From the NCBI RefSeq assembly GCF_044324785.1, contig NZ_CP172127.1: 64,000 bases of DNA, one strand, 5' to 3'. A program made the translations under genes and the position numbers. Each line of letters begins with the position of its first letter. The stretch's first letter is position 1. Shown piece by piece: positions 1 to 47,457 of the stretch. The notes beneath the pieces were generated by a model, which was given only the letters and a program-made list of their open reading frames with translations, did no database searches and was not told the origin of the DNA. This DNA is from Escherichia coli. GTDB taxonomy: Bacteria; Pseudomonadota; Gammaproteobacteria; Enterobacterales; Enterobacteriaceae.

Positions 1-3
1 GAA

Positions 4-27
4 AGCCTCCCAGTGGAGGCTTTTTTT
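4..27 (+). terminator. pheST attenuator terminator (end of pheM leader region): stem AGCCTCC/GGAGGCT followed by a T-run
   Basis: GC-rich hairpin plus TTTTTT seen directly at the window start, about 210 bp upstream of the pheS ATG; position fits the known pheS attenuator. Confidence 0.6.
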
Positions 28-196
28 GTATGCGCGTTTTGAAAAATAAAAAGCCTGTCTCATCAGGCGTAATTGTCGCAGCCAGTCTGGACACGGCCAG
101 CGCGGAGAAACCGGAGCGTATTTAAGTACGTGAGGATTTCGAGCACTGCCCGGGACCAAAATGGCAAGTAAAATAGCCTGATGGGATAGGCTCTAA

Positions 197-1222
<1,026 letters not shown>

Positions 1223-1233
1223 GGCAGGAATAG

Positions 1234-3624
<2,391 letters not shown>

Positions 3625-3628
3625 ACCT

Positions 3629-3928
3629 ATGGCGCTTACAAAAGCTGAAATGTCAGAATATCTGTTTGATAAGCTTGGGCTTAGCAAGCGGGATGCCAAA
3701 GAACTGGTTGAACTGTTTTTCGAAGAGATCCGTCGCGCTCTGGAAAACGGCGAACAGGTGAAACTCTCTGGTTTTGGTAACTTCGATCTGCGTGATAAGA
3801 ATCAACGCCCGGGACGTAACCCGAAAACGGGCGAGGATATTCCCATTACAGCACGGCGCGTGGTGACCTTCAGACCCGGGCAGAAGTTAAAAAGCCGGGT
3901 CGAAAACGCTTCGCCCAAAGACGAGTAA
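3629..3928 (+). CDS. ihfA: integration host factor alpha subunit
   Basis: 99-aa [60 protein letters not shown]; HU/IHF fold signature. Confidence 0.95.
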
Positions 3929-3945
3929 TCTGATCTAACTAAAAA

Positions 3946-3966
3946 GGCCGCTCTGCGGCCTTTTTT
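3946..3966 (+). terminator. rho-independent terminator after ihfA (GGCCGC-tct-GCGGCC then TTTTTT)
   Basis: perfect 6-bp GC stem followed by a T6 run, seen in sequence. Confidence 0.75.
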
Positions 3967-4028
3967 CTTTTCACTGTCGAAGAGTCACCGTAAAATCAAC
4001 GCCATGACACTTCAGCAGAACGGATACC

Positions 4029-5009
4029 ATGCTGACACTTGCCCGCCAACAACAGCGACAAAATATTCGCTGGTTATTATGCCTGTCAGTTTTGATGCTG
4101 CTGGCGCTTCTCTTAAGCCTTTGCGCCGGTGAACAATGGATTTCGCCAGGTGACTGGTTTACTCCTCGTGGCGAACTGTTCGTCTGGCAAATTCGCCTGC
4201 CACGTACGCTGGCTGTATTGCTGGTTGGTGCGGCGCTGGCTATATCCGGCGCAGTAATGCAGGCGTTGTTTGAAAATCCTCTGGCAGAACCTGGACTACT
4301 TGGCGTCTCTAACGGCGCAGGCGTGGGGCTTATCGCCGCGGTATTGCTTGGGCAAGGGCAACTCCCAAACTGGGCACTAGGGCTGTGTGCGATTGCTGGC
4401 GCGCTTATCATCACTTTAATACTCTTACGTTTCGCCCGTCGTCATCTTTCGACCAGTCGGTTATTGCTGGCTGGCGTTGCATTAGGGATTATCTGTAGCG
4501 CACTAATGACGTGGGCTATCTACTTTTCCACCTCTGTTGATTTACGTCAGCTGATGTACTGGATGATGGGCGGTTTTGGCGGCGTAGACTGGCGGCAAAG
4601 CTGGCTGATGCTGGCATTGATCCCCGTGTTGTTGTGGATCTGTTGTCAGTCCAGACCGATGAATATGTTAGCACTTGGCGAGATCTCGGCGCGGCAACTG
4701 GGTTTACCCCTGTGGTTCTGGCGCAATGTGCTGGTGGCAGCGACCGGCTGGATGGTTGGCGTTAGTGTGGCGCTGGCGGGTGCTATCGGCTTTATTGGTC
4801 TGGTGATCCCACATATTCTCCGGCTGTGTGGTTTAACCGATCATCGCGTATTACTTCCCGGCTGCGCGCTGGCAGGGGCGAGCGCATTGCTGCTGGCTGA
4901 TGTTGTAGCACGCCTGGCATTAGCTGCCGCAGAGCTGCCTATTGGCGTGGTCACCGCAACGTTGGGTTCGCCGGTATTTATCTGGTTATTGTTAAAAGCA
5001 GGACGTTAG
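4029..5009 (+). CDS. btuC: vitamin B12 ABC transporter permease
   Basis: 326-aa polytopic membrane ORF; FecCD-type permease, position in btuCED. Confidence 0.93.
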
Positions 5010-5071
5010 CCGCAAAAAGACGGTCTATGATTAAAAGCTAAGATTTTTACTGACCACACCCAGGAGAAACG

Positions 5072-5623
5072 ATGCAAGATTCCATTCTGACGACCGTAGT
5101 GAAAGATATCGACGGTGAAGTGACCACGCTGGAGAAGTACGCCGGTAATGTGCTGTTGATTGTCAATGTCGCCTCAAAGTGTGGCTTAACGCCGCAATAT
5201 GAGCAGTTGGAGAATATTCAGAAAGCCTGGGCCGATCGAGGTTTTGTGGTGCTGGGATTCCCGTGCAACCAGTTTCTGGAACAAGAACCGGGCAGCGATG
5301 AAGAGATTAAAACTTACTGTACCACCACATGGGGGGTGACGTTCCCGATGTTCAGTAAGATTGAAGTTAATGGCGAAGGACGCCATCCACTGTATCAAAA
5401 ATTGATTGCCGCAGCGCCGACGGCAGTCGCGCCGGAAGAGAGCGGATTCTATGCCCGTATGGTCAGCAAAGGTCGTGCACCGCTGTACCCTGATGATATT
5501 TTATGGAATTTTGAGAAATTTTTAGTCGGCAGGGACGGATTGGTCATCCAGCGTTTTTCCCCGGATATGACGCCGGAAGCTCCCATTGTGATGGAAAGCA
5601 TTAAACTGGCGTTGGCGAAATAA
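5072..5623 (+). CDS. btuE: glutathione/thioredoxin peroxidase
   Basis: 183-aa ORF with glutathione peroxidase motifs ([19 protein letters not shown]). Confidence 0.93.
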
Positions 5624-6372
5624 TGTCTATTGTGATGCAGCTACAGGATGTTGCGGAATCAACCCGCCTTGGGCCGCTTTCTGGCGAGGTTCGGGCTGGG
5701 GAGATCCTGCACCTGGTGGGGCCGAATGGCGCGGGTAAGAGTACCTTACTGGCGCGAATGGCCGGAATGACCAGCGGTAAGGGAAGCATTCAGTTCGCGG
5801 GGCAACCACTGGAAGCATGGTCCGCAACAAAACTCGCGCTGCATCGCGCCTATCTTTCACAACAGCAGACGCCGCCGTTTGCAATGCCGGTCTGGCACTA
5901 CCTGACACTGCATCAGCACGATAAAACGCGTACCGAACTACTGAATGATATCGCAGGGGCGCTGGCTCTTGATGACAAACTCGGACGTAGCACCAATCAA
6001 CTTTCCGGCGGTGAATGGCAACGCGTACGTCTTGCTGCGGTGGTGCTGCAAATCACACCACAAGCCAATCCCGCAGGCCAATTGCTGCTTCTTGATGAGC
6101 CGATGAACAGTCTTGATGTTGCGCAACAAAGTGCGTTAGACAAAATTCTGAGCGTGCTGTGTCAGCAAGGACTGGCGATTGTGATGAGCAGTCACGATCT
6201 CAACCACACATTGCGTCATGCGCATCGGGCGTGGTTGCTAAAAGGTGGAAAAATGCTGGCCAGTGGACGCAGAGAAGAGGTGCTCACGCCGCCAAATCTG
6301 GCGCAGGCCTATGGGATGAATTTTCGCCGTCTGGATATCGAAGGTCACCGAATGCTGATTTCGACCATCTGA
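5623..6372 (+). CDS. btuD: vitamin B12 ABC transporter ATP-binding protein
   Basis: 249-aa ORF with Walker [10 protein letters not shown] and ABC signature LSGGEWQRV; start ATG overlaps the btuE stop (TAATG). Confidence 0.93.
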
Positions 6373-6449
6373 TTTCATTAGTATCTTGAAAATCGGGTAA
6401 TTACGACGCTAAATTAATGCAAGAATAAAAAACAGAGGAACCGTACGGA

Positions 6450-6914
6450 ATGCGTTTCTGCCTTATTTTGATCACAGCACTGTTTCTGGCCGGGTGTAGC
6501 CACCATAAAGCACCGCCGCCAAATGCCAGACTTTCTGATTCGATTACCGTTATTGCCGGTTTGAACGACCAGCTACAAAGCTGGCATGGCACGCCGTATC
6601 GTTATGGTGGCATGACGCGGCGCGGTGTGGACTGTTCGGGATTTGTTGTTGTGACGATGCGCGATCGTTTCGATTTGCAGCTGCCCCGTGAAACCAAACA
6701 ACAAGCCTCTATCGGCACGCAAATTGATAAAGACGAGTTGCTGCCTGGTGACCTGGTCTTTTTCAAAACGGGCTCCGGACAAAATGGTTTGCATGTAGGT
6801 ATTTATGATACCAACAACCAATTTATCCACGCCTCTACCAGCAAGGGAGTGATGCGTTCCTCACTCGATAATGTCTATTGGCAGAAAAATTTCTGGCAGG
6901 CGAGACGAATCTAG
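6450..6914 (+). CDS. nlpC: NlpC/P60 family lipoprotein (peptidoglycan endopeptidase-like)
   Basis: 154-aa ORF with lipobox LAGC and NlpC/P60 Cys motif (DCSGFV). Confidence 0.9.
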   Translation: MRFCLILITALFLAGCSHHKAPPPNARLSDSITVIAGLNDQLQSWHGTPYRYGGMTRRGVDCSGFVVVTMRDRFDLQLPRETKQQASIGTQIDKDELLPGDLVFFKTGSGQNGLHVGIYDTNNQFIHASTSKGVMRSSLDNVYWQKNFWQARRI

Positions 6915-7160
6915 TATGTCGAAAAATGGACGGCGATGATACATCTCCGTCCATTTACTCCTGAATACAGTAGTATTTTACAGACAAAAATTCCGTAAAT
7001 GGATTATTCGTTTATAATCAGGATAATCTAATAAAAGGACCCCTGAAAAAGTGGTTAACATGGAACAAATGAAAGTTACTCCTTCTGTAATTGTTATGTC
7101 TTATGGCCTCATCCCTTTTAGCCGGATACTGAAAAACATCCTTCGAGAGGGACGGTTACC

Positions 7161-7874
7161 ATGAAGATTTTTTTGGAGAATCTTTATCATTCTGATTGCT
7201 ATTTCCTGCCGATAAGAGATAACCAGCAAGACCTTGTCGGCGTTGAGTTAATTACCCATTTCTCCAGTGAAGATGGTACGGTTCGTATCCCGACGAGTCG
7301 GGTTATAGCGCAACTTACCGAGGAGCAACATTGGCAATTATTTTCTGAGCAGTTGGAATTGCTAAAATCATGCCAACACTTTTTTATTCAACATAAACTC
7401 TTTGCCTGGCTTAATTTAACCCCACAAGTGGCTACTTTATTATTAGACAGGGATAATTACGCGGGCGAACTATTAAAATATCCGTTTATTGAACTGTTGA
7501 TTAATGAGAATTACCCGCATCTCGATGAAGGAAAAGATAATCGCGATCTTTTTTCCTTATCGCAAATGTATCCCCTTGTGTTAGGTAATTTGGGCGCAGG
7601 CAATAGCACAATGAAAGCGGTTTTTGATGGCCTTTTCACCCGCGTCATGCTGGATAAAAGTTTTATTCAGCAACAAATCACGCATCGCTCCTTCGAACCG
7701 TTTATTCGTGCGATCCAGGCGCAAATTTCCCCATGTTGCAATTGCATCATCGCGGGGGGCATTGATACGCCAGAAATAATGGCACAGATTATCCCCTTTG
7801 ATTTCCATGCTCTCCAGGGATGCCTGTGGCCTGCCGTTCCTGTAAATCAGATAACGACGTTGGTTCAGCGATAA
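7161..7874 (+). CDS. ydiV: degenerate EAL-domain protein, anti-FlhD4C2 factor
   Basis: 237-aa ORF matching YdiV; AT-rich codon usage; position between nlpC and selO. Confidence 0.88.
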   Translation: MKIFLENLYHSDCYFLPIRDNQQDLVGVELITHFSSEDGTVRIPTSRVIAQLTEEQHWQLFSEQLELLKSCQHFFIQHKLFAWLNLTPQVATLLLDRDNYAGELLKYPFIELLINENYPHLDEGKDNRDLFSLSQMYPLVLGNLGAGNSTMKAVFDGLFTRVMLDKSFIQQQITHRSFEPFIRAIQAQISPCCNCIIAGGIDTPEIMAQIIPFDFHALQGCLWPAVPVNQITTLVQR

Positions 7875-7897
7875 CCCTCCTGTTTGCTGGTGTTTAA

Positions 7898-9373
<1,476 letters not shown>

Positions 9374-9376
9374 AGG

Positions 9377-9568
9377 CTACTTGGTCAACAGCAGCTTGCC
9401 AGCCTGAGTTTTACGAAGCAGATATTCTTGCCCGTCATGATCGATAATCAGTTTGCCATCCGGACCTAACAGTGTCTGGCTGGTAATTCGCCGAATGGGC
9501 TGCGGGGAAGCGGTCTTGTGATTGGCATCCGTTTCAGGCGTGAGTTTTCTGCTATCCGTATAACGCAT
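9377..9568 (-). CDS. ydiE: HemP-like small protein
   Basis: ORF track 9377..9595; internal ATG gives the 63-aa [23 protein letters not shown] protein; convergent with selO with a 3-bp gap. Confidence 0.8.
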
Positions 9569-9592
9569 AAAAATTAATAATAATTGATATAA

Positions 9593-9612
9593 CAATAATT
9601 CTTATTATCAAT
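9593..9612 (-). promoter_or_regulatory. Fur-box-like AT palindrome upstream of ydiE (CAATAATTCTTATTATCAAT)
   Basis: near-perfect inverted repeat with GATAAT-type hexamers about 25 bp upstream of the ydiE ATG; ydiE/hemP homologues are typically iron-regulated. Confidence 0.5.
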
Positions 9613-9699
9613 ATTCTGGCGGGCCAGAGCAAGCAGTAATTTGTTGAGAAGACAACAAGTTGCGCAGAAATGCCCATTCCGTCAGGAATGGGCACGCAT

Positions 9700-10746
9700 T
9701 CAGAAGCGGGTATCAACCGCAGAGGCGAGTTTTTCGACCAGGCGTTCGGTATCTTCCCAGCCCAGACACGGGTCGGTAATCGATTGACCGTAAGTGAGCG
9801 GCTGACCGCCGACGATTTTTTGCGTTCCTTCGCGCAGGAAACTTTCCGCCATAATTCCAGCAATCGCCGTAGAGCCATTGCGGATTTGCTGACAAATATC
9901 CTCACAAACTTCTAACTGGCGACGGTGCTGCTTCTGGCAGTTACCGTGGCTGAAATCCACCACCAGATGTTCAGGCAAATCAAATTCGTGCAGCGTATCG
10001 CAGGCTGCGGCGATATCATCGGCATGATAATTCGGTTTTTTGCCGCCACGCATAATAATGTGGCCATACGGGTTGCCGCTGGTCTGATAGATGGTCATCT
10101 GACCATTTTTGTCTGGCGAGAGGAACATATGGCTGGCGCGGGCTGCGCGGATAGCATCCACAGCAATCCGCGTGTTGCCATCGGTACCATTTTTAAAACC
10201 TACCGGACAGGAGAGTGCCGAAGCCATTTCACGGTGGATCTGACTTTCGGTAGTACGTGCGCCAATCGCGCCCCAACTGATTAAATCAGCAATAAACTGA
10301 CCGGTCACCATATCGAGGAACTCAGTCGCGGTGGGGACGCCCAGCTCATTTACCTGTAAAAGTAATTTGCGCGCCAGCTCCAGACCGTGATTTACCCGAT
10401 AGCTGCCGTTTAAATCCGGATCGGAGATTAGCCCTTTCCAGCCGACAACAGTTCGTGGTTTTTCAAAATAGGTGCGCATTACGATTTCCAGCCGTGACTG
10501 GTACTGGTTGCGCAGCGACTGCAGACGGGTGGCGTACTCCATTGCAGCGGTGAGATCGTGGATCGAGCAGGGGCCAATAATGACCAACAGTCGCTTATCT
10601 TCACCATTCAGTATTTTTTCAATTCTGCGGCGGGAGTCGGTGACATGGGTGGCGACGCCAGGCGTTACGGGATACCGTAGCGCGAGTTCGGCGGGCGTTA
10701 CCAGGCTCTCAATACGCGCAGTACGGAGTTCGTCAGTTCTGTTCAT
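9700..10746 (-). CDS. aroH: DAHP synthase, Trp-sensitive
   Basis: 348-aa ORF; class I DAHP synthase sequence recognised. Confidence 0.95.
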   Translation of the reverse strand: MNRTDELRTARIESLVTPAELALRYPVTPGVATHVTDSRRRIEKILNGEDKRLLVIIGPCSIHDLTAAMEYATRLQSLRNQYQSRLEIVMRTYFEKPRTVVGWKGLISDPDLNGSYRVNHGLELARKLLLQVNELGVPTATEFLDMVTGQFIADLISWGAIGARTTESQIHREMASALSCPVGFKNGTDGNTRIAVDAIRAARASHMFLSPDKNGQMTIYQTSGNPYGHIIMRGGKKPNYHADDIAAACDTLHEFDLPEHLVVDFSHGNCQKQHRRQLEVCEDICQQIRNGSTAIAGIMAESFLREGTQKIVGGQPLTYGQSITDPCLGWEDTERLVEKLASAVDTRF

Positions 10747-10889
10747 TACAAGTCTCAGAAATTTGTTGCTTCTACGGCAGGACTACCGGGAAGTGATGCG
10801 CATCACGATAAACCAATCGCAGCTGATTTCAAGTGCGAGGTGTGTCACACCTCGCCGGGTGGTTAGCATGATAACAAAAAAACAAGTTA

Positions 10890-10909
10890 ATGCACTAGTT
10901 CTCTAGTAC
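10890..10909 (-). promoter_or_regulatory. TrpR operator of the aroH promoter (GTACTAGAGAACTAGTGCAT on the minus strand)
   Basis: CTAG-containing palindrome matching the TrpR operator half-sites, about 145 bp upstream of the aroH ATG and overlapping the ppsR stop codon. Confidence 0.65.
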
Positions 10910-11736
10910 ATTCGGCGGCTAAGGCCCATGATATCGAGGATCTTGGTGGCAATCTCTTCTACCGAATAATTGGTACTGTTAATCCACGGGATCTGATTTT
11001 TACGGTACAACGCTTCCACTTCCGCGACTTCCATCCTGCACTGACGAAGCGAGGCATAGCGACTGTTCTCCCGACGTTCCTCGCGAATCGCCGCCAGACG
11101 TTCCGGGTCGATAGTCAGGCCGAACAATTTATGCTGAAGCGGTTTGAGCGACGCGGGTAGCACAAGATTATCCATATCGTCGGCAATAAAGGGGTAGTTT
11201 GCCGCGCGGATACCAAACTGCATTGCCAGATACAGACTGGTGGGGGTTTTACCACAGCGAGAAACACCGAGCAGGATCACCTGAGCCTGGTCCAGATTGC
11301 GCAACGAAATGCCGTCATCGTGGGCGAGGGTGTAATCAATCGCCGCAATGCGCGCATCATATTTATTGAGATTATTAGGGTTAAGGCCGTGGGTTCGGTG
11401 AGCAATCGGCGTTGGATCCAGTTTCATCTCTTGTTGTAGCGGGGCAACCAGCGCCTGAACGATATCCTGGCAAAACCCTTCACTTTGCAAGATGATGGCG
11501 CGAATCTCCGGCAATACGATGGAGTAGAAGACCAGCGGGCGCACACCTGTCTGGTGATAAATTGCGTCAATCTGATCCTTCACTGCCCGTGCACGGCTCT
11601 CATTTTCGACAAACGGCAGCGTAATGCTGCTGATAGTGACGGGAAATTGTGACATTACTGCGTGTCCTAATACCTCCGCAGTTATTGCCGTACCATCAGA
11701 AATATAAAAAACGTGGCGATCAACAGCATTATCCAT
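10903..11736 (-). CDS. ppsR: PEP synthetase regulatory protein (bifunctional kinase/pyrophosphorylase)
   Basis: 277-aa ORF with P-loop GVSRCGKT; divergent from ppsA. Confidence 0.92.
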
Positions 11737-11966
11737 TTTGTTCTTCCCGTGATGCAGACATAATTCTATGAAAGCATAAATTAAAAACGCACAGAAGCGT
11801 AGAATGTTATGTCTGGTTTATAAAATGAACCTTCAATTTTATTATTTATGAAAACAGCATTTCATTTTTATGGTTTCGTTTATACCGATGGTTTATGTGG
11901 AAATTGTCGAATAAAGCAGGTTTGCGCAACGCTGGGATCAGTCTTAAAAAGTAAAAAAATATATTT

Positions 11967-11980
11967 GCTTGAACGATTCA
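11967..11980 (+). promoter_or_regulatory. Cra (FruR)-box-like site in the ppsA promoter (GCTTGAACGATTCA)
   Basis: matches the TGAA-CG-TTCA Cra half-site arrangement about 90 bp upstream of the ppsA ATG; ppsA is a classical Cra-activated gene. Confidence 0.5.
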
Positions 11981-12068
11981 CCGTTTTTTTCATCCGGTTA
12001 AATATGCAAAGATAAATGCGCAGAAATGTGTTTCTCAAACCGTTCATTTATCACAAAAGGATTGTTCG

Positions 12069-14447
12069 ATGTCCAACAATGGCTCGTCACCGCTGGTGCT
12101 TTGGTATAACCAACTCGGCATGAATGATGTAGACAGGGTTGGGGGCAAAAATGCCTCCCTGGGTGAAATGATTACTAACCTTTCCGGAATGGGTGTTTCC
12201 GTTCCGAATGGTTTTGCCACAACCGCCGACGCGTTTAACCAGTTTCTGGACCAAAGCGGCGTAAACCAGCGCATTTATGAACTGCTGGATAAAACGGATA
12301 TTGACGATGTTACCCAGCTTGCGAAAGCGGGCGCGCAAATCCGCCAGTGGATTATCGACACTCCCTTCCAGCCTGAGCTGGAAAACGCCATCCGCGAAGC
12401 CTATGCACAGCTTTCCGCCGATGACGAAAACGCCTCGTTTGCGGTGCGTTCCTCCGCTACTGCAGAAGATATGCCGGACGCTTCTTTTGCCGGTCAGCAG
12501 GAAACTTTCCTCAACGTTCAGGGTTTTGACGCCGTTCTCGTGGCTGTGAAACATGTATTTGCTTCTCTGTTTAACGATCGCGCCATCTCTTATCGTGTGC
12601 ACCAGGGTTACGATCACCGTGGCGTGGCGCTCTCCGCCGGTGTTCAGCGGATGGTGCGCTCCGACCTCGCATCTTCTGGCGTGATGTTCTCCATTGATAC
12701 CGAATCCGGCTTTGACCAGGTGGTGTTTATCACTTCCGCATGGGGCCTTGGTGAAATGGTCGTGCAGGGTGCGGTTAACCCGGATGAGTTTTACGTGCAC
12801 AAACCGACACTGGCGGCGAATCGCCCGGCTATCGTGCGCCGCACCATGGGGTCGAAAAAAATCCGCATGGTCTACGCGCCGACCCAGGAGCACGGCAAGC
12901 AGGTTAAAATCGAAGACGTACCGCAGGAACAGCGTGACATCTTCTCGCTGACCAACGAAGAAGTGCAGGAACTGGCAAAACAGGCCGTACAAATTGAGAA
13001 ACACTACGGTCGCCCGATGGATATTGAGTGGGCGAAAGATGGCCACACCGGTAAACTGTTCATTGTGCAGGCGCGTCCGGAAACCGTGCGCTCACGCGGT
13101 CAGGTCATGGAGCGTTATACGCTGCATTCACAGGGTAAGATTATCGCCGAAGGCCGTGCTATCGGTCATCGCATCGGTGCGGGTCCGGTGAAAGTCATCC
13201 ATGACATCAGCGAAATGAACCGCATCGAACCTGGAGACGTGCTGGTCACTGACATGACCGACCCGGACTGGGAACCGATCATGAAGAAAGCATCTGCCAT
13301 CGTCACCAACCGTGGCGGTCGTACCTGTCACGCGGCGATCATCGCTCGTGAACTGGGTATTCCGGCGGTAGTGGGCTGTGGTGATGCAACAGAACGGATG
13401 AAAGACGGTGAGAACGTCACTGTTTCTTGTGCCGAAGGTGATACCGGTTACGTCTATGCGGAGTTGCTGGAATTTAGCGTGAAAAGCTCCAGCGTAGAAA
13501 CGATGCCGGATCTGCCGTTGAAGGTGATGATGAACGTCGGTAACCCGGACCGTGCTTTCGACTTCGCCTGCCTGCCGAACGAAGGCGTGGGCCTTGCACG
13601 TCTGGAATTTATCATCAACCGTATGATTGGCGTCCACCCACGCGCACTGCTTGAGTTTGACGATCAGGAACCGCAGTTGCAAAACGAAATCCGCGAGATG
13701 ATGAAAGGTTTTGATTCTCCGCGTGAATTTTACGTTGGGCGTTTGACTGAAGGGATCGCGACGCTGGGTGCCGCGTTTTATCCGAAGCGCGTCATTGTCC
13801 GTCTCTCTGATTTTAAATCGAACGAATATGCCAACCTGGTCGGTGGTGAGCGTTACGAGCCAGATGAAGAGAACCCGATGCTCGGCTTCCGTGGCGCGGG
13901 CCGCTATGTTTCCGACAGCTTCCGCGACTGCTTCGCGCTGGAGTGTGAAGCAGTGAAACGTGTGCGCAACGACATGGGGCTGACCAACGTTGAGATCATG
14001 ATCCCGTTCGTGCGTACCGTAGATCAGGCGAAAGCGGTGGTTGACGAACTGGCGCGTCAGGGGCTGAAACGTGGTGAGAACGGGCTGAAAATCATCATGA
14101 TGTGTGAAATTCCGTCCAACGCCTTGCTGGCAGAGCAGTTCCTCGAATATTTCGACGGCTTCTCAATTGGCTCAAACGACATGACACAGCTGGCGCTCGG
14201 TCTGGACCGTGACTCCGGCGTGGTGTCTGAACTGTTCGATGAGCGCAACGATGCGGTGAAAGCACTGCTGTCGATGGCGATTCGTGCCGCGAAGAAACAG
14301 GGCAAATATGTCGGGATTTGCGGTCAGGGTCCGTCCGACCACGAAGACTTTGCCGCATGGTTGATGGAAGAGGGGATCGATAGCCTGTCTCTGAACCCGG
14401 ATACTGTGGTGCAAACGTGGTTAAGCCTGGCTGAACTGAAGAAATAA
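12069..14447 (+). CDS. ppsA: phosphoenolpyruvate synthase
   Basis: 792-aa ORF; PEP-utilising enzyme domains including the phosphohistidine region ([17 protein letters not shown]). Confidence 0.96.
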
Positions 14448-14454
14448 AATAAAT

Positions 14455-14479
14455 CCCCGGCGGCGTTTTGTCGCCGGGT
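14455..14479. terminator. bidirectional terminator between convergent ppsA and fadK (CCCGGCG-loop-CGCCGGG)
   Basis: GC stem flanked by A/T-rich runs on both sides, seen in sequence. Confidence 0.65.
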
Positions 14480-14503
14480 TTATGTGATCCCCGAAGATGA
14501 AAC

Positions 14504-16150
14504 TTATTCAATCTCTTCACAGACATCCTGAGTTAATCGCCGCATAATATCTTTCCTTAACAAAAACTTTTGTATTTTACCTGAGGCTGTGCGCGGTAGT
14601 TTTTCGATTACCACGATATGTTCAGGATATTTATATTTCGCGACCCGTTTACGGCTAAAAAATGCCACCACCTCTTCCAGCGATAATGAATGATGCGGCG
14701 CTTTCAGCACGACATAAGCGCATGAACGTTCACCTAAGCGTTCATCGGGCATTGCAACCACACAAGCATCGTGAATTTTAGGATGCTGTAATAAAATATC
14801 TTCCACTTCACGGCTGCTAATATTTTCGCCGCCGCGGACAATAATATCTTTCTTGCGCCCGGTTATTTTTATATAGCCAGCCTCATCCATGCGGCAGAGA
14901 TCGCCGCTGTAATACCAGCCTTCTTCATCCAGCGCACGGGCGGTTAATTCAGGTTCATCAAAATACCCCATAAACACATTGGGGCCACGCGAGGCTTCTT
15001 CACCTTCGTAACCTGGCGGTAAGGTCTTGCGTGCGTCATCGACCACTTTAATCTCAACTCCTGCGGCAGCGTAACCATCGGTGTGCATAAAGCGCGATAA
15101 AGGATCGTCGAGATTCACCACTGCGTGCGGCGAACTTTCTGTGGAACCATAAACACTTAATAATTTAATGCCGCGCTGCTGGCATTCACGCGCCACTTTT
15201 TTGGGGATTGTGGTCCCGCCGCAAAGAAAGAAGCGCAGCGCTGAAAGGTCTGCGGGTTGTTTCTCCAGTAAATTCAAAAGATCATAGACAAACGGCGTTG
15301 CGCCGAGCATACAGGTGCAACGCTGCTGCTCAAGCAGCGCGAGACACGCATCAGGAGTGAAAATATCTAACAACACGCTGCGAGCGCCAATTAAGAATGG
15401 TGCCGTTACGCCATGCAGAAAGCCCGTTGCATGACCAAGTGGCGCAGGCATCATAAAGACATCCTGCCAGGTCAGATTCAACCGCGCGCAATAAGCCCGC
15501 TCACTGGCGAGAATATTGTTATGCGTTAGCATCACGCCCTTTGGCAGACCCTCGGTTCCGGAGGTAAACAGCACCGCGGCTAATTCATCGCCGTGGACCG
15601 TTATCGCCGTGGTCAGAGGAGTATTGTCGGCGATAATCTGACTTAATGAGAGGGAAGAGGTGGCGGGAGCCAGTTTGTCCACGCCGACAATTTGTTGTAG
15701 TTGTGGAAGCTGATTTTGCAGCGGCAGGATTAAATCTACCGGACGCGTTTGTTTAAACAACGTCGGAGCAAAGAACATTTTTGCCTGACACTTATTGAGC
15801 ACCCATACCAGTTCTGCTTCCCGCCAGGAAGGCAACAGCGGTACGGAAACCGCACCGATTTTCAGGCAGGCAAGATAGATAACGGTAAATTCACACCAGC
15901 CAGGCAGTTGAAATGCGATGCGATCGCCTGATTCAATACCCTTCGCTAACATCCAGTTTGCCAGACAGCTCGCGGCGTGATCGAGCGCGCTATAGGTGTA
16001 CGATGCTCCATGATTATCGACCACGGCAATTTTGTCTGGCATCGCACGAGCGGTCTGCTGCCAGTAATCGGCCAGCGAAGCATCGCCCCATAGCCCTTGC
16101 TGACGATACGCCGCACGACGTTGTTCGTTAAACGTTAATGTCACTTTCAT
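14504..16150 (-). CDS. fadK: short-chain acyl-CoA synthetase (anaerobic)
   Basis: ORF track 14504..16204; internal ATG gives the 548-aa MKVTLTFNEQ protein; AMP-binding motifs (TSGTEGLPKG). Confidence 0.88.
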   Translation of the reverse strand: MKVTLTFNEQRRAAYRQQGLWGDASLADYWQQTARAMPDKIAVVDNHGASYTYSALDHAASCLANWMLAKGIESGDRIAFQLPGWCEFTVIYLACLKIGAVSVPLLPSWREAELVWVLNKCQAKMFFAPTLFKQTRPVDLILPLQNQLPQLQQIVGVDKLAPATSSLSLSQIIADNTPLTTAITVHGDELAAVLFTSGTEGLPKGVMLTHNNILASERAYCARLNLTWQDVFMMPAPLGHATGFLHGVTAPFLIGARSVLLDIFTPDACLALLEQQRCTCMLGATPFVYDLLNLLEKQPADLSALRFFLCGGTTIPKKVARECQQRGIKLLSVYGSTESSPHAVVNLDDPLSRFMHTDGYAAAGVEIKVVDDARKTLPPGYEGEEASRGPNVFMGYFDEPELTARALDEEGWYYSGDLCRMDEAGYIKITGRKKDIIVRGGENISSREVEDILLQHPKIHDACVVAMPDERLGERSCAYVVLKAPHHSLSLEEVVAFFSRKRVAKYKYPEHIVVIEKLPRTASGKIQKFLLRKDIMRRLTQDVCEEIE

Positions 16151-16206
16151 TTTGGACTCTCGAGACAGAACATCAGGCCCGAGATGCGGGCCTGTGGGAT
16201 GCATGA

Positions 16207-16500
16207 TTAGCCGTAGCGAAAATCAATACCGAAGGTGCCTGCGGGATATTGCCACTGTTCGAGAATAGTGTTGCCGCACAGCACCCGACAGGTGCCGCAC
16301 TCCAGACAACCGGCGGAATCGAAATGAATATTTCCTGCGTCATCCTGCTTATAAAGTCCGGCAGGGCAGGCTTTCATTAATTTACGGAATTCATTGATAT
16401 CGGGATTTGCCGCCAGAATGATATGCGGATGGCCCTCATCAACATGGAATTTATTGACGCCTAATTTGATGTCGACGTTAACCGTAGCGTTCTGGCTCAT
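16207..16500 (-). CDS. ydiT: ferredoxin-like protein (FixX-like)
   Basis: 97-aa ORF with a Cys cluster (CLECGTCRVLC). Confidence 0.88.
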   Translation of the reverse strand: MSQNATVNVDIKLGVNKFHVDEGHPHIILAANPDINEFRKLMKACPAGLYKQDDAGNIHFDSAGCLECGTCRVLCGNTILEQWQYPAGTFGIDFRYG

Positions 16501-17786
16501 AGCGCGGTTGCTCCCTTAATGCCATCTTTCAGCAAGTTGATCAGTCCAATTTTCTTCGCGTGTCCCATGATCATTTTGCGTACCGGTTGGTTAGGTTTGC
16601 CGTCAATGGTGAACATCTCGTTCATGATGTCGGCGACCATGCGCGGATACTGACTAAACAGGCGCGGATTTTCCATCAGCGCCGGGATCTTGCGGAAATG
16701 CTGCATATCGCGCATAACACAACTTTGTTCCAGCTCACGTTTGTATTGCGCCAGACTGCTGGTGGAGAAATCCGCGCGTTCTTTGGCGGCAATCACCGTT
16801 GTGGCGGCAGCCTGAGCTGATGCAATGGCTAAATCCATGCCGCGAACTGTAAAACCCAAATTCAGGCAGAAGCCTGCGGCGTCACCAACGATCATCACGC
16901 CATCGTTAACCAGCTGCGGCACCATCGCCAGACCGCCTTCCGGTACCATATGCGCGGAGTATTCAAGCAGTTTGCCGCCGCTAATCAGCGGGCGAATGGC
17001 GGGGTGTTGTTTAAAATCTTCCAGCATTTGCGGCACGCTTTTTTGCGCATGGGCGATATCACCCAATCCACAAACCAGCCCCAACGATATGGAATCCTTA
17101 TTGGTATAGAGGAATCCGCCACCCATCAGGCCGTCAGAAGGGGAACCGGCAAACAGCCAGGCGGCACCTTCCTCGCCCGTAATATTAAAGCGATCGTTGA
17201 TCTGTTCTGGTGTGAGGCCAATAACCTCTTTAACACCAACAGCGTAATGATGCGGATCGGAAGCGGGAACCATTCCCAGCGAGCGGCCAAGCATCGAGTT
17301 AACGCCATCAGCCAGAATCACCACATTCGCTTCGAGAATATCATCCCCAGCCTGGACGCCAGTGACCTTGTTTCCTTCACGAACCAGCGCATCGACGCGA
17401 ACGCCCGGGATAAACTGTGCGCCCGCCTGCTCGGCTTGTTCCATCAACCACGGGTCCAGACGATTACGCAATACGGTATAAGATGCGTGTTGCGGAACAT
17501 CTGGTTGCTCGCGGTGAAAATCGAGGGTAACGGCGCTCTCTTCGGTTAAGAAGGAGATTTTCTCGCGTGTGACCTTGCGTTCTACCGGCGCTGATGCTGC
17601 AAAGCCTGGAATGATTGCTTCAAGTGTGTGGGCATAAAGACGCCCGCCGGTCATGTTTTTACATCCGGCACTGTCGCCGCGTTCTATCACCAGGACATCC
17701 AGCCCGGCTTGCGCCATGACCAGTGCGGCAACGCTACCAGCAACGCCCGCACCGACCACAATGGCATCAAATTTGTCATCCGACAT
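16497..17786 (-). CDS. ydiS: FAD-dependent oxidoreductase, ETF-quinone oxidoreductase-like (FixC-like)
   Basis: 429-aa ORF with N-terminal dinucleotide-binding motif VVGAGVAGS; 4-bp overlap with ydiT. Confidence 0.88.
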   Translation of the reverse strand: MSDDKFDAIVVGAGVAGSVAALVMAQAGLDVLVIERGDSAGCKNMTGGRLYAHTLEAIIPGFAASAPVERKVTREKISFLTEESAVTLDFHREQPDVPQHASYTVLRNRLDPWLMEQAEQAGAQFIPGVRVDALVREGNKVTGVQAGDDILEANVVILADGVNSMLGRSLGMVPASDPHHYAVGVKEVIGLTPEQINDRFNITGEEGAAWLFAGSPSDGLMGGGFLYTNKDSISLGLVCGLGDIAHAQKSVPQMLEDFKQHPAIRPLISGGKLLEYSAHMVPEGGLAMVPQLVNDGVMIVGDAAGFCLNLGFTVRGMDLAIASAQAAATTVIAAKERADFSTSSLAQYKRELEQSCVMRDMQHFRKIPALMENPRLFSQYPRMVADIMNEMFTIDGKPNQPVRKMIMGHAKKIGLINLLKDGIKGATAL

Positions 17787-17841
17787 GCGTTATGCTCCCT
17801 TCCCGCTGCGTTTACAGCGGGAGATGTGGTTGAAAGGGGAA

Positions 17842-18780
17842 TTAGCGGCTCAACTGGCTAATCAGGGCAGGGACGACTTTGTAGATATCGCCCACCAGAC
17901 CGTAGTCGGCATAGTTGAAGATTGGCGCATTTTTATCTTTATTGATGGCGACAATCACTTTTGCGCCGTTGCCGCCAACCATATGCTGGATCTGCCCGGA
18001 GATTCCCAGCGTCAGGTAGAGATCGGATTTCAGCAACACGCCGGAGACACCGATATAACGTTCACGCTCCATCCAGTTCTCGCCTTCGGCAATTGGACGT
18101 GAACAGCCGACTTCAGCATTCAGAACCGCCGCCAGTTCGTGGACCATTTTCAGGTCATCCTGCGCTGCCAGACCACGACCGACGCCAACCACACGTTTTG
18201 CTTTGCTCAGGTCCACGCTGCTTGCCGCTTTCGCACGGCGTTCGCGACAGAGAATTTCATGACGCGGGGCAACATAAGGTACCGTTTCTGTCGGGCACTG
18301 ATGAGAGGTATCACTGGTGCACGGTTCCTGAACACCGGGTGCAAGGGTAATGATCGCCAGCGGGCTGTTGATCTTTTCCTGTGCGAACGCTAACCCGCCA
18401 TACATCCGGTGTTCGGCGCAAATGTGACCATCGACAATATCCACCGCCGTGGCATCGTTCACCAGCGCCGCATTCAGTTGCACACTTAACCGTGCTGCCA
18501 GAGCTTTACCACGTTTCGTCGCGGCCAACAGCAACATAGCGGGGTGTTTATCTTTCAGCAGGGCAGCAATGCTTTCGGCGTAATTTTCAGTACGTTGCAG
18601 CGCATCATTTTGCTCAAGAACATAAATACATTTTGGACCATAAGGCATAACTGCCTGCGCCTGGTCGGTATTTTGTACAATGGCATACACCTGTTGACCC
18701 CATTGCTGCGCGCCGCCAAACAGTTCAGCATAACGTTCAGGATTATCGCTAAAGACCCAGACGCTGTTTAATTGACTCAT
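17842..18780 (-). CDS. ydiR: electron transfer flavoprotein alpha subunit (FixB-like)
   Basis: 312-aa ORF; ETF alpha family. Confidence 0.88.
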   Translation of the reverse strand: MSQLNSVWVFSDNPERYAELFGGAQQWGQQVYAIVQNTDQAQAVMPYGPKCIYVLEQNDALQRTENYAESIAALLKDKHPAMLLLAATKRGKALAARLSVQLNAALVNDATAVDIVDGHICAEHRMYGGLAFAQEKINSPLAIITLAPGVQEPCTSDTSHQCPTETVPYVAPRHEILCRERRAKAASSVDLSKAKRVVGVGRGLAAQDDLKMVHELAAVLNAEVGCSRPIAEGENWMERERYIGVSGVLLKSDLYLTLGISGQIQHMVGGNGAKVIVAINKDKNAPIFNYADYGLVGDIYKVVPALISQLSR

Positions 18781-18799
18781 CGTTTCTTCTCCGTAGGCT

Positions 18800-19564
18800 T
18801 CAGTTCAGGGCTTTCTTCAGATGTTCCACCAGCTCGGCAATGGCCTCCGGCGAATCGTTATCGAGAATGATGTGCTTACGTTCTGTTTGCGGCGGTACGC
18901 GAATGCCGGTCAGTTCAGCAAGTGGTGCGCTCTGGCTCCAGCCAATATCACTTGCCTGCCACTGATTTACCGGTTTTTTACCCGCGCCGAGAATGGCTTT
19001 CATCGAAGGAATGCGTGGCATGTTAATATCGGAGGTGACGCAGAGCACGGCTGGAACAGAGAGCTCAATAACTTCAACATCATCTTCAAGCGTGCGTTCA
19101 ATCACCAGTGTATTGCCCTGACGCTGAATAGCACTCACTGCATTAATCACCGGAAGTTGCAGAATTTCTCCGACCAGCAAGCCAACCTGCTGGGCATAAA
19201 GGTCGCCGGAACCTTCACCAAAGATCAGTAAATCGAAGCCGATCTTTTCAACTGCTGCCGCCAGCGCCTTTGCGGTATCGAGAGGCAGTGCATGTTCAAG
19301 TTGCGCATCCTGCACCAAATACAGGCTATGCGGCCCGCGGGATAGCACGTCTTTGCGCACTTTCGAGTTCTGCAACAATGAGCCACCAATAGTCAGCGCG
19401 GCTATCTCATCGTCATCTGTTGCAAGCTGGCTTGCAGCTTCAATGGCATTGAGATCGAACTGGCTGATTTTGGCGTCGGCATTGTCGAAATTCAGGGTAT
19501 ATTCTGGAGTGACAACAATGTCCTGTTCTTCAGGCACCAGCTTAAAGCAGGTTATTATTTTCAT
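18800..19564 (-). CDS. ydiQ: electron transfer flavoprotein beta subunit (FixA-like)
   Basis: ORF track 18800..19663; internal ATG gives the 254-aa MKIITCFKLVPEEQDIVV protein. Confidence 0.88.
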   Translation of the reverse strand: MKIITCFKLVPEEQDIVVTPEYTLNFDNADAKISQFDLNAIEAASQLATDDDEIAALTIGGSLLQNSKVRKDVLSRGPHSLYLVQDAQLEHALPLDTAKALAAAVEKIGFDLLIFGEGSGDLYAQQVGLLVGEILQLPVINAVSAIQRQGNTLVIERTLEDDVEVIELSVPAVLCVTSDINMPRIPSMKAILGAGKKPVNQWQASDIGWSQSAPLAELTGIRVPPQTERKHIILDNDSPEAIAELVEHLKKALN

Positions 19565-19879
19565 GATTTCTCCTGTGAGTCGCATACGGAACCATCTCCG
19601 ATGGAAGGTAAAAATGGCCTGAAAATAGTGTGCGATAGCGGTGCGGGGTTTTCGACGGAGCAAGCTGTTTTCCTTGCCAACAATCTTGCAAAAAAAATGC
19701 GATCGCTAAAACAAAAGTGCAATTTGCGGCAATATAGTTATTCCATGACCGTACAATCTTGCATTCAGTGTAAATAATCTTGTTTAGCTCTCGCTAAACG
19801 CGGTTGTATAACCGCAATACACGCCGTATTTTATCCGGCATATATTGTTTTTGCTTGCTCATGGAATAGGGAGGTTGTC

Positions 19880-20791
19880 ATGTATCAACGCTGTTTTGAT
19901 AATGCCAGTGAAACGCTGTTTGTCGCCGGTAAAACGCCACGGCTTTCACGTTTTGCATTTAGCGATGATCCAAAATGGGAGTCCGGACATCACGTTCATG
20001 ACAATGAAACCGAGTTGATTTACGTCAAGAAAGGGGTAGCAAGGTTTACCATCGATTCTTCGTTATATGTCGCGCACGCCGATGACATTGTGGTGATAGA
20101 ACGTGGCAGGCTGCATGCGGTGGCCTCTGACGTTAACGATCCAGCAACGACGTGTACCTGTGCGCTGTACGGCTTTCAGTTTCAGGGGACTGAGGAAAAT
20201 CAGCTACTGCAACCGCATTCTTGCCCGGTAATTGCCGCAGGGCAGGGAAAAGAAGTCATTAAAACCTTATTTAATGAGCTAAGTGTGATTTTGCCGCAAA
20301 GTAAAAATAGCCAAACATCTTCGTTATGGGACGCATTTGCCTATACGTTAGCAATTCTTTACTATGAAAACTTTAAAAATGCTTATCGTTCGGAGCAGGG
20401 GTATATTAAAAAAGATGTTCTGATAAAAGATATTCTTTTCTATCTGAATAATAATTATCGCGAAAAAATCACTTTAGAGCAGTTATCGAAAAAATTTCGT
20501 GCCAGCGTCAGTTATATTTGCCATGAATTTACCAAAGAGTATCGTATTTCCCCTATTAACTATGTTATTCAACGGCGTATGACGGAAGCGAAATGGTCAC
20601 TCACCAATACTGAATTATCACAGGCAGAGATCTCCTGGCGTGTGGGTTATGAAAATGTCGATCACTTTGCCAAACTGTTTTTGCGCCATGTCGGCTGTTC
20701 GCCCAGCGATTACCGCAGGCAATTTAAAAACTGTTTTGCGGAACAAGAAATCTTATCTGAATTTCCTCAACCGGTAAGTCTTGCCGGATAA
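19880..20791 (+). CDS. ydiP: AraC/XylS-family transcriptional regulator
   Basis: 303-aa ORF with C-terminal AraC-type HTH; divergent from ydiQ. Confidence 0.85.
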   Translation: MYQRCFDNASETLFVAGKTPRLSRFAFSDDPKWESGHHVHDNETELIYVKKGVARFTIDSSLYVAHADDIVVIERGRLHAVASDVNDPATTCTCALYGFQFQGTEENQLLQPHSCPVIAAGQGKEVIKTLFNELSVILPQSKNSQTSSLWDAFAYTLAILYYENFKNAYRSEQGYIKKDVLIKDILFYLNNNYREKITLEQLSKKFRASVSYICHEFTKEYRISPINYVIQRRMTEAKWSLTNTELSQAEISWRVGYENVDHFAKLFLRHVGCSPSDYRRQFKNCFAEQEILSEFPQPVSLAG

Positions 20792-20833
20792 ATCTGGCGG
20801 CGCAGTTTGTTAAGAAGCTGCGCCGCCTGCAGA

Positions 20834-21985: not shown

Positions 21986-21998
21986 CGTGATACTCCTG

Positions 21999-23594: not shown

Positions 23595-23739
23595 TGTTAA
23601 TTCCTGATTCAGATGTGATTTTCCCTACGCCAGATGGAGAATTAGCGCACAGAGACTCACGAAATATTTTTATTAAATACGGTTAAATATATTTTTTTTA
23701 GTTCGGCGGGGGAGGATATTCCCGCCGAAATATTATTGC

Positions 23740-24498: not shown

Positions 24499-24528
24499 TT
24501 TTTACCCTTTCTGCACGCGGTCAGCCTG

Positions 24529-25395: not shown

Positions 25396-25406
25396 AATTA
25401 ACTCCT

Positions 25407-26672: not shown

Positions 26673-26898
26673 TTTCACAGCTCCTTGCTGAAAGATAATT
26701 TCGTTACCGTACGTATTGTTCTCCGACGGTTTACATAATTACTATACTGAAGATGATTTTCTCTGGGTACATGGCATAAAGTTTATGTTTCCAGGAATAT
26801 TGCATGTCATAGTTTGTTTTTGATCGCGATTTTCCTTAGTTAGCGCAGAAAGAGTTATTTATCCGTAAGATCTTGCATGACCTGAAAAGAATATTGCA

Positions 26899-44252: not shown

Positions 44253-44256
44253 CCAT

Positions 44257-44707: not shown

Positions 44708-47457
<2,750 letters not shown>

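Follow-up and report, generated by a model that had tools for sequence, protein, structure and literature searches.

The ydiV gene of Escherichia coli (rflP, b1707) is AT-rich, and the account that best explains it, which we favor as a whole with moderate confidence, is that of an old, vertically inherited gene, held at a maintained, low-expression AT equilibrium and preceded by a leader of ordinary GC content, in which a short upstream open reading frame (uORF) would be coupled to it. The gene was analyzed within a window of 64,000 nucleotides, corresponding to the segment of the E. coli chromosome from pheS to sodB. The gene was already known, and the contrast in composition with its surroundings is real but ordinary. 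A dip of 8–10 GC points confined to one gene is often taken for foreign DNA: comparison across genera guards against this error and, for ydiV, the dip spans the whole history of the Enterobacteriaceae, thus indicating a trait of a weakly expressed regulator and no transfer scar. To the known picture of YdiV/RflP, the analysis adds that the GC offset is persistent, that GC3 tracks the host and that the synteny is old, together with the uORF.

The ydiV gene and its product

The coding sequence, located at 7161..7874 on the + strand, encodes a protein of 237 amino acids, and its identity is supported by the list of open reading frames, RefSeq annotation, and Pfam and PDB matches. The same interval is annotated as ydiV/rflP in a 99.4% identical genome and in K-12, with the RefSeq description "anti-FlhDC factor". 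The protein matches PDB entries 3TLQ and 4ES4 with E = 1e-156 over residues 1–237. The match to the Pfam EAL domain (PF00563), covering residues 13–222, is weak, scoring 34.9 bits where the cut-off is 31.3, and marks a degenerate, stand-alone EAL protein; the best NCBIfam match, to a PDE equivalog, reaches 48 bits where 190 would be required, and no canonical EAL structure was matched in the PDB sequence search. Eight out of ten catalytic and c-di-GMP-binding residues are reported as lost (PMC3510510). RefSeq, Pfam, the PDB matches and this last report all agree with the earlier note, made from the sequence, which had described the gene as a known one, encoding a degenerate EAL-domain anti-FlhD4C2 factor.

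The window protein differs from that of K-12 at 10 of its 237 residues: none of the changes falls within helix alpha8 (176–192), which binds FlhD, and residues S177, F178, P180, F181 and A184 are invariant over 20 diverse orthologues. YdiV binds FlhD, strips FlhD4C2 off DNA and hands it to ClpXP (PMC3510510, PMC7002133, PMC5425062); its effect depends on dose, the gene being held at very low expression.

The gene lies between nlpC and selO (ydiU), its neighbors being btuD, nlpC, selO and hemP; it is the same gene as that of YdiV/RflP (CdgR, STM1344), known from E. coli and Salmonella, and it is found at the same nlpC-ydiV-selO position. The sole other PDB sequence match, with E = 5e-22, is STM1697 (PDB 5HXG), the second EAL-like anti-FlhD4C2 protein of Salmonella, which belongs to the same degenerate EAL-only subfamily. 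It is a paralogue encoded at another locus, absent from the window, and blocks RNA polymerase recruitment (PMC5622320).

Base composition and codon usage

The coding sequence is indeed AT-richer than those flanking it, as initially noticed: its GC content is 0.426, versus 0.495 for nlpC and 0.525 for selO. Among the 58 genes of the window (mean GC 0.505, sd 0.032) it is the second lowest, only ydiP being below it. Its GC2 (0.324) and its CAI (0.213) are the lowest in the window, its GC3 (0.441) the fourth lowest. GC and CAI, the two measures suggested as a check of the contrast, place ydiV at or next to the bottom of the window genes (z = -2.5 for GC). CAI was computed with the weights of Sharp and Li (1987); three measures independent of these weights, Nc, GC3 and codon-usage distance, are concordant.

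The AT-rich run quoted as an example, ttttttattcaacataaactctttgcc, is present within the gene, at 7380–7406. On a fine-scale profile the AT-rich trough extends over ~6900..7700, including the leader and the first ~540 bp of ydiV, with GC values of 0.30–0.47 per 100 bp, while the 3' end of the gene (7700–7874, the last ~170 bp) features a normal GC content of 0.48–0.52. Such dips are not confined to ydiV: ydiP, ydiN/M/L and the fumD region (GC 0.36) are equally or more AT-rich. The codon usage had also been described as of low complexity, and this was a mistake: it is among the least biased and most diverse in the window, as indicated by an Nc of 57.2, a codon entropy ranking 4 out of 46 and a mid-range hexamer complexity.

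The deficit of 8.6 GC points may be split into two equal parts, -4.3 points being related to amino-acid composition and -4.3 to synonymous choice. Q, F, I, L, H and N are abundant in the protein, whose A, G, V and R are scarce; the skew is alike at conserved and variable sites, and it could perhaps be an inherited trait of the EAL subfamily to which YdiV belongs. As to the synonymous part, GC3 rises with CAI among window genes (rho 0.48, p = 4e-4): the value expected from the CAI of ydiV is 0.49, versus the observed 0.44 (residual z = -1.1). The trend, derived from 41–51 genes of one window, accounts for about half of the synonymous deficit. In the favored account, the protein composition contributes about half of the whole deficit and synonymous sites the other half, where a near-absent codon bias leaves ydiV at the AT-leaning level of the weakly expressed genes of the window. 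Low expression, we infer, is the cause of this equilibrium.

Maintenance of the AT-rich composition

The nlpC-ydiV-selO order, with btuD upstream, holds in each of the 77 loci whose upstream sequence is long enough, which represent about 15 named genera within the Enterobacteriaceae; in the full set of 80 loci, nlpC was matched in 77 and selO in all. The same position is occupied by ydiV in Erwinia (Erwinia psidii) and Symbiopectobacterium, and the gene adjoins selO in Cronobacter. In E. coli, the ydiV region is found in 5424 out of 5426 complete genomes, and neither mobility genes nor tRNA are present within 10 kb of it.

In 74 of the 77 loci the GC content of ydiV is below that of both flanks, with mean deficits of 8.1 points for GC and 12 points for GC3. 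The GC3 of ydiV follows that of selO with a slope of 0.64 (r 0.67, n = 77), to be compared with the 0.72 (r 0.70) obtained for nlpC, taken as a control. Comparisons between genera show saturation at synonymous sites (pS 0.65–0.78; dS >1.5 or undefined): since the GC3 deficit is kept in 74 of the 77 loci, and follows the host, in spite of this saturation, it is maintained in situ, with no surviving donor signature. The gene would be an old regulatory gene of the Enterobacterales, vertically inherited and fixed between nlpC and selO, and its AT-richness a gene-specific equilibrium, showing the same offset in nearly all genera and moving with the GC content of the host.

Two divergent sequences were discarded. 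A YdiV labelled as from E. fergusonii, with 49% identity, had been considered as an allele replacement within Escherichia: its flanks are 70–76% identical to those of E. coli, and the record is probably mislabelled. Another sequence (P0029), with 68% identity, seems to have been misassembled from an E. coli half and a Citrobacter half.

Tight regulation, which the earlier note had read in the AT content of gene and leader, finds support in the literature and in the content of the leader, but not in the AT content of the latter, which is ordinary for intergenic DNA. In E. coli liquid culture, ydiV expression is below detection, and FliZ works via the nlpC promoter (PMC3367168); control is dose-dependent (PMC7002133); the Salmonella gene is silenced by H-NS and counter-silenced by CadC (PMC9728131). 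AT-richness might be maintained by selection for silencing by H-NS/StpA, the leader and the 5' coding region providing a platform for nucleation and spreading, relieved by counter-silencers. Two H-NS sites have been footprinted in the 313-bp region upstream of the Salmonella gene, from which CadC displaces H-NS (PMC9728131), and in the locus of Salmonella the 19-nt H-NS site falls at -244. The GC content of the leader stays within 0.33–0.45, independently of host GC (r = -0.19); the leader is enriched in TpA steps and A/T tracts, and the trough, about 800 bp long, has a plausible length for a filament. Yet the E. coli promoter fragment is not shifted by H-NS in EMSA, and the E. coli and Salmonella promoters are unrelated in sequence (PMC9728131), while the AT content of the leader is no higher than in other intergenic regions. 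The high-affinity H-NS motif, searched with a consensus, has 2 matches in 800 bp, the average over the window being 1.06 for that length, which is uninformative. Selection for silencing appears unlikely as the main explanation, and could contribute at ydiV in a form which sequence alone does not separate from the effect of low expression.

A lower probability is assigned to relaxed constraint, where ydiV would be a decaying or near-neutral gene, pulled to AT by the universal GC-to-AT mutation bias. The protein does evolve 3–4 times faster than its neighbors: its identity to other genera is 41–54%, versus 72–87% for the neighboring proteins, its dN is 3–4 times that of selO, and its dS is higher too. 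For ydiV, divergence from K-12 is 3.5%, versus 1.2–1.5% in the flanks, and many truncated variants are found in E. coli protein clusters. Within Escherichia, however, the dN/dS of ydiV is about 0.10 (0.04–0.05 for selO, 0.01 for nlpC): this denotes clear purifying selection, and therefore a functional gene. E. coli ydiV knockouts show strong motility phenotypes (PMC5425062, PMC7002133), and the FlhD-binding helix is without change. AT drift at unconstrained sites was also rejected: site conservation and codon GC are uncorrelated in ydiV (rho 0.055, p = 0.40), AT-richness being equal in conserved and variable codons. Relaxed constraint is thus contradicted, and at most adds a small share to the synonymous part of the deficit.

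Horizontally acquired AT-rich genes are reportedly silenced by H-NS, a behavior known as xenogeneic silencing and said to have been described by Lucchini in 2006 and Navarre in 2007. With such genes ydiV shares a low GC content relative to the genome, and H-NS binding and counter-silencing are known at its Salmonella promoter (PMC9728131). Unlike xenogeneic islands, it is a core gene, syntenic over three families of Enterobacterales, not accompanied by mobility genes and with a composition that tracks the host. Least probable of all, and very much so, is that ydiV be the relic of an old transfer from an AT-rich donor, still unameliorated to E. coli composition: its atypical GC, the small size of the YdiV family, far from canonical EAL proteins (317 cluster representatives of 1.84 billion at E <= 1e-3), and a second-tier relative in Hafnia, on an AT-rich, mobile-looking island (gene GC 0.285, locus 0.347), would fit a transfer, but the gene occupies the same place in every locus examined, from the 15 or so named genera and two further families, is core in E. 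coli, has no integrase, tRNA or transposase at its borders, and keeps at saturated synonymous sites a GC3 deficit that scales with the host. The older horizontal origin, previously suggested as possible, is not supported as a cause of the composition, in view of these same features, and, where the GC3 of today is concerned, a transfer is largely refuted. An acquisition predating the divergence of these families would explain nothing visible today. The second-tier, EAL-only relatives include those of Hafnia and Brenneria; on the Hafnia island, the genes close to the relative include KwaB, a resolvase and a repressor of phage type.

The leader and its upstream open reading frame

The nlpC-ydiV intergenic leader (6915..7160, + strand) is exactly 246 bp long, as originally reported, and has a GC content of 0.374; it had been called AT-rich, but is not unusually so, ranking 11th among the 24 intergenic stretches of the window that measure 80 bp or more (mean GC 0.401, sd 0.049). 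It is found in 5418 out of 5426 E. coli genomes, with 95–100% identity. Its regulatory content would consist of the conserved uORF, a -10 box, a hairpin acting as a leaky terminator of nlpC, and GGA motifs, located at 7038–7040 (within AAGGACC), 7063–7065, 7125–7127 and 7150–7152.

The hairpin, followed by a short U tract, is located just past the nlpC stop (6924..6956, + strand). It is stable (dG -19.3 kcal/mol, z = -5.8), none of 200 shuffled sequences folding as well, and is kept in Escherichia species. It is terminator-like, and probably leaky, because read-through from the nlpC promoter into ydiV has been reported (PMC3367168; bioRxiv 10.1101/2020.05.29.124750; nlpC is also a TraDIS hit in PMC5425062). 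A perfect -10 hexamer, TATAAT, is found at 7013..7018 on the + strand, within a block, GTTTATAATCAG, also present in the Salmonella leader (S. enterica). It is a candidate promoter element for ydiV, with a poor -35: a scan for consensus promoters and terminators gave no + strand call in the leader, the -35 associated with this hexamer being too weak. A predicted sigma-E-like element, overlapping 7062–7090, joins the hexamer and the nlpC read-through as a candidate source of ydiV transcripts. As to RNA structure, an Rfam scan of 6300–8100 returned chance matches below threshold only; RNAalifold, run on 60 leader sequences, produced just a 3-bp helix (-0.77 kcal/mol), leading to rejection of a conserved structure, and the fold of the E. 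coli leader is not significant (z = -0.5).

The uORF (7060/7069..7164, + strand) has 34 codons when started at ATG 7060, or 31 from ATG 7069, at position -92, which is the conserved start. Its TGA (7162–7164) overlaps the ydiV ATG (7161–7163) in the sequence ATGA. The uORF is identical in K-12, and its frame is open in 69 out of 79 loci, versus 3 and 6 of 79 for the other + strand frames; stops in this frame total 18, versus 223 and 126 for the two remaining + frames, the - frames having 82–210. An ATG is located exactly at -92 in 65 of the 79 loci, in all of which the ATGA is invariant. Among genus representatives, the uORF is open in 17 out of 17, at a mean nucleotide identity of 49%. The encoded peptide, in contrast, is not conserved, column conservation being 0.68, 0.64 and 0.74 at codon positions 1, 2 and 3.

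The start context is ATGAAA, with a Shine-Dalgarno-like GGAA at 7062–7065; upstream of the start, the AAGGAA at -101..-96 features a column conservation of 0.82–0.94. At the opposite end, residue 2 of YdiV is variable (K/I/N/M), but its codon always starts with A. In Salmonella the junction between uORF and ydiV reads TAATGA. Inside the uORF, CCGGATACT (7122..7130, + strand) is the E. coli form of a motif, cAGGATGcc, located at -39..-31, with a conservation of 0.8–0.9 over 65 loci. CsrA reportedly binds STM1344 mRNA; given this and the known preference of CsrA for GGA, which CCGGATACT contains, CsrA might bind at this motif. The Shine-Dalgarno region of ydiV, GAGAGGGA (7145..7152, + strand), lies within the last uORF codons, and corresponds to a consensus G.GGGGC at -14..-8, with a conservation of 0.85–0.98. 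Pairing with UCCCUUUU (7111–7118) is feasible in E. coli, but the resulting hairpin is not significant (z = -0.8) and is not conserved, and sequestration of the Shine-Dalgarno sequence was rejected as the conserved element.

A conserved open frame, an unconserved peptide and the ATGA overlap together suggest translational coupling. No earlier description of the uORF was found in the literature, and it is apparently both conserved across Enterobacteriaceae and undescribed. Its translation is putative, no supporting record having turned up among the ribosome-profiling sources consulted, and its most likely role would be that of making ydiV translation depend on that of the leader, by termination-reinitiation coupling, and hence controllable. 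That ydiV translation is coupled to that of the leader through this uORF, and that control exerted there sets how much YdiV is made, thereby governing flagellar bistability and pulsing, is a proposal for which we see even chances. The control could be exercised by CsrA binding to the conserved GGA motifs, by sRNAs, or by use of promoters including or excluding the uORF start.

A comparable arrangement is said to have been described by Vecerek, Moll and Blaesi in 2007 for uof-fur, where translation of a short upstream frame is reportedly needed for that of the downstream regulator. As in uof-fur, the frame in the ydiV leader has about 30 codons and its own Shine-Dalgarno-like element, and ends at the start of a dose-sensitive regulator; here the frame is conserved and the peptide is not, and coupling is putative. 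Unlike that of uof-fur, the ydiV ribosome-binding site comes without a conserved sequestering RNA structure.

The uORF could be relevant to flagellar regulation, as YdiV acts by dose and its post-transcriptional control differs between E. coli and Salmonella. If real, the coupling could explain why ydiV is transcribed in E. coli yet yields little protein, and a frameshift in E. albertii and the weak Shine-Dalgarno sequence of Salmonella would be natural variants of the same control point.

Base composition and codon usage of ydiV

The window spans the E. coli chromosome between pheS and sodB. The gene ydiV (now rflP, b1707; 7161-7874, + strand) was located as an ORF coinciding with the RefSeq annotation of the best-matching genome and of K-12, from which gene names were transferred base for base; its neighbours are nlpC (6450-6914) upstream and selO/ydiU (7937-9373) downstream. 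A 3-kb query around it finds a match in 5424 of the 5426 complete E. coli genomes, with a top identity of 99.4%. The encoded protein contains a stand-alone, weak EAL domain (Pfam score 34.9 bits, cut-off 31.3) and matches, with E = 1e-156, the PDB entries 3TLQ (E. coli YdiV) and 4ES4 (YdiV-FlhD); the only further PDB sequence match is the Salmonella paralogue STM1697. Annotation, EAL match and structures confirm that this is a known gene, as stated in the earlier note. Ten residues differ from K-12 YdiV, none of them within the FlhD-binding helix 176-192. Truncated YdiV variants (130-206 aa) are numerous among E. coli assemblies, where protein clusters P0008, P0020, P0028, P0045 and P0051 comprise hundreds of member sequences; this hints at recurrent inactivation in natural strains, loss of ydiV giving hypermotility.

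Composition was tabulated for the 58 genes of the window (GC, GC2, GC3, Nc, and CAI based on Sharp-Li weights). With a GC of 0.426, ydiV is indeed AT-richer than nlpC (0.495) and selO (0.525), and lies well below the gene mean (0.505, sd 0.032; z = -2.5); only ydiP (0.425) is lower. Its GC2 (0.324) and CAI (0.213) are the lowest among window genes, its GC3 (0.441) the fourth lowest. At a fine scale, the AT trough extends from about 6900 to about 7700, the final 170 bp of the gene being GC-normal; the T-rich run quoted in the earlier note is found at 7380-7406. The "low-complexity" codon usage also claimed there is the reverse of the data: Nc is 57.2, denoting nearly no codon bias, by codon entropy the gene is the fourth most diverse of 46, and its hexamer complexity is intermediate. 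ydiV is not the only AT dip of the window; equal or deeper ones are found at ydiP (19880-20791, GC 0.425), in the MFS genes ydiN/ydiM/ydiL (25407-28569, GC about 0.45) and in the fumD region (ynhH-fumD-ydhY intergenic regions, 43400-44800, GC 0.36).

The 8.6-point GC deficit within the window splits evenly between amino-acid composition (-4.3) and synonymous choice (-4.3). Q, F, C, H, I and L are over-represented in the protein, and A, G, V, K and R under-represented. GC3 increases with CAI in window genes (rho 0.48, p = 4e-4), and the low CAI of ydiV predicts a GC3 of 0.49; since the observed 0.44 leaves a residual z of only -1.1, most of the synonymous half may be seen as the appearance of a gene without translational selection, in agreement with a report that its expression cannot be detected in liquid cultures of E. 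coli (PMC3367168). YdiV evolves 3-4 times faster than the neighbouring proteins. Within Escherichia, dN/dS is about 0.10 for ydiV, 0.04-0.05 for selO and 0.01 for nlpC. A value of about 0.10 indicates a gene that is not decaying.

Selection for H-NS binding may also contribute to the AT-richness. In Salmonella, H-NS footprints the ydiV upstream region, from which CadC displaces it (PMC9728131), and the 19-nt site described there was placed, in one S. enterica locus, at -244; for an E. coli ydiV fragment, however, no H-NS shift was reported in the same paper.

Position and age of the locus

An older horizontal origin had been suggested as a possible reason for the composition. An alignment of 20 diverse YdiV proteins was used to fetch 80 Enterobacteriaceae loci, belonging to about 15 named genera: the order btuD-nlpC-ydiV-selO is found in each locus of sufficient extent, nlpC being matched in 77 and selO in all 80. 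The family is small (317 matches at E <= 1e-3 when 1.84 billion cluster representatives were searched with a profile), with further members in Cronobacter, Mangrovibacter, Erwinia, Edaphovirga, Symbiopectobacterium, Brenneria and Hafnia. Erwinia psidii features the order nlpC-ydiV-selO, Symbiopectobacterium nlpC-lplA-ydiV-selO, the inserted gene coding for an lplA-like ligase, and in Cronobacter selO directly adjoins ydiV. Judged from the 80-locus set and these three genera together, the position of ydiV predates the split of Enterobacteriaceae, Erwiniaceae and Pectobacteriaceae. No mobility genes are present at the ydiV borders in the annotated neighbourhood.

Among the 77 loci where both flanks are measurable, ydiV is AT-richer than both in 74, with a mean deficit of 8.1 points in GC and 12 in GC3. 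Its GC3 follows the host (slope 0.64, r 0.67 against selO GC3), much like that of nlpC compared to selO (slope 0.72, r 0.70). Synonymous sites are saturated between genera (pS 0.65-0.78); a third-position signature from a donor could not outlast such turnover, which means that each lineage must keep renewing the offset. An older horizontal origin is conceivable as a remote event, but the old fixed position, the GC3 deficit despite saturation and the host tracking do not support it as the cause of the present composition. Simple AT drift at unconstrained sites is ruled out, conserved and variable codons being equally AT-rich (rho 0.055, p = 0.40). The AT-richness of ydiV is real, maintained across the lineage and probably explained by ordinary causes.

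Some loci show peculiar features. A LacI-family regulator gene lies between nlpC and ydiV in Buttiauxella and Cronobacter, and the Dryocola spacer has the same length, about 1.28 kb, as that of Buttiauxella. A Hafnia paralvei locus (L089, GC 0.347) carries at 4001-4687 a second-tier YdiV-like, EAL-only gene (GC 0.285, E = 6e-27 to the YdiV profile), adjoined by a resolvase, a phage-type repressor and a KwaB homologue; this very AT-rich gene, related to the family, sits on an island. In CP031282.1, labelled Escherichia fergusonii, the ydiV flanks share only 70-76% of their nucleotides with E. coli, a Salmonella-like distance, and btuE is absent; probably, either this is not E. fergusonii or the ydiV region has been replaced.

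The leader and its upstream reading frame

The nlpC-ydiV spacer (6915-7160) is 246 bp long with a GC of 0.374, as described; its AT content is not unusual: of the window's 24 intergenic regions that are 80 bp or longer (mean GC 0.401, sd 0.049), it ranks 11th. A strong hairpin (6924-6956; -19.3 kcal/mol, z = -5.8) lies directly 3' of nlpC. Its short U tract agrees with earlier reports that transcription from the nlpC promoter reads through into ydiV (PMC3367168; bioRxiv 10.1101/2020.05.29.124750), and with the hypermotility of TraDIS insertions in nlpC and the intergenic region (PMC5425062). A perfect TATAAT is found at 7013-7018, within a block, GTTTATAATCAG, common to the Salmonella leader. 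Neither Rfam nor RNAalifold indicates a conserved RNA structure in the leader.

The leader contains a small upstream ORF (uORF; + strand) of 31-34 codons, running from ATG 7060, or ATG 7069 (-92), to a TGA at 7162-7164 which forms an overlapping ATGA with the ydiV start codon. The ATG is exactly at -92 in 65 of 79 loci, and the 31-codon frame is stop-free in 69, against 3 and 6 for the other two + frames (18 total stops, against 223 and 126); minus-strand frames over the stretch are not open. In 17 genus representatives, sharing 49% nucleotide identity over the stretch, the frame is always open (joint probability about 1e-14, assuming independent representatives). Shuffled leaders yield such a uORF in 22 ± 4 of 78 loci; the observed number is 75. 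Conserved elements are the SD-like AAGGAA (-101..-96), the ATGAAA start, cAGGATGcc (-39..-31), the ydiV SD (-14..-8) and the ATGA; YdiV residue 2 is K, I, N or M, the first base of its codon being always A. Conservation is lacking at the peptide level: column conservation is 0.68/0.64/0.74 for codon positions 1/2/3, compared with 0.81/0.88/0.65 in the first codons of ydiV.

Over about 15 named Enterobacteriaceae genera, frame, -92 start and SD-like element are conserved and the peptide is not; at the sequence level the uORF thus resembles a regulatory leader ORF, one that would matter through being translated and not through its product. We propose that termination-reinitiation may couple ydiV translation to the uORF, possibly gated by CsrA at GGA motifs. 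In S. enterica the uORF is present, with TAATGA, and is contained in the transcript starting at the mapped TSS at -230 (bioRxiv 10.1101/2020.05.29.124750). The Buttiauxella-Dryocola group retains it, shifted, with 33 codons; it is absent in Cronobacter, Erwinia and Symbiopectobacterium. In E. albertii (L006, 5900-6000) a 1-nt deletion shifts the frame and cuts the uORF to 25 codons, ending 13 nt upstream of the ydiV start codon, with loss of the ATGA overlap: a natural variant usable for probing the proposed coupling. The K-12 uORF is identical to that of the window, yet is not annotated there; gene finders call it, nameless, on a few dozen contigs. A literature search pairing ydiV with a uORF found no paper, and the uORF is apparently previously undescribed. 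It is the only item of the ydiV finding worth experimental follow-up.

A GGAACAA-N15-TCTGT element at 7062-7090 looks like a sigma-E promoter, and a predicted sigma-24 site in the spacer is cited by PMC5930307. Its overlap with the uORF start means that transcripts initiated there would be without the uORF initiation region.

Similarity to the closest genome

Compared to the closest genome, that of strain N3, the window shows 8-62 mismatches per 4 kb over 1-16000 and none over the 12 kb of 16001-28000, a mosaic which suggests recombination tracts. ydiV is 100% identical to N3 and differs by 3.5% from K-12. Finally, ydiJ (30499-33555), sufS (38662-39882) and ydhS (50444-52054), intact in the window, are annotated in N3 as frameshifted or interrupted pseudogenes, probably reflecting assembly errors or strain-specific lesions in that genome.
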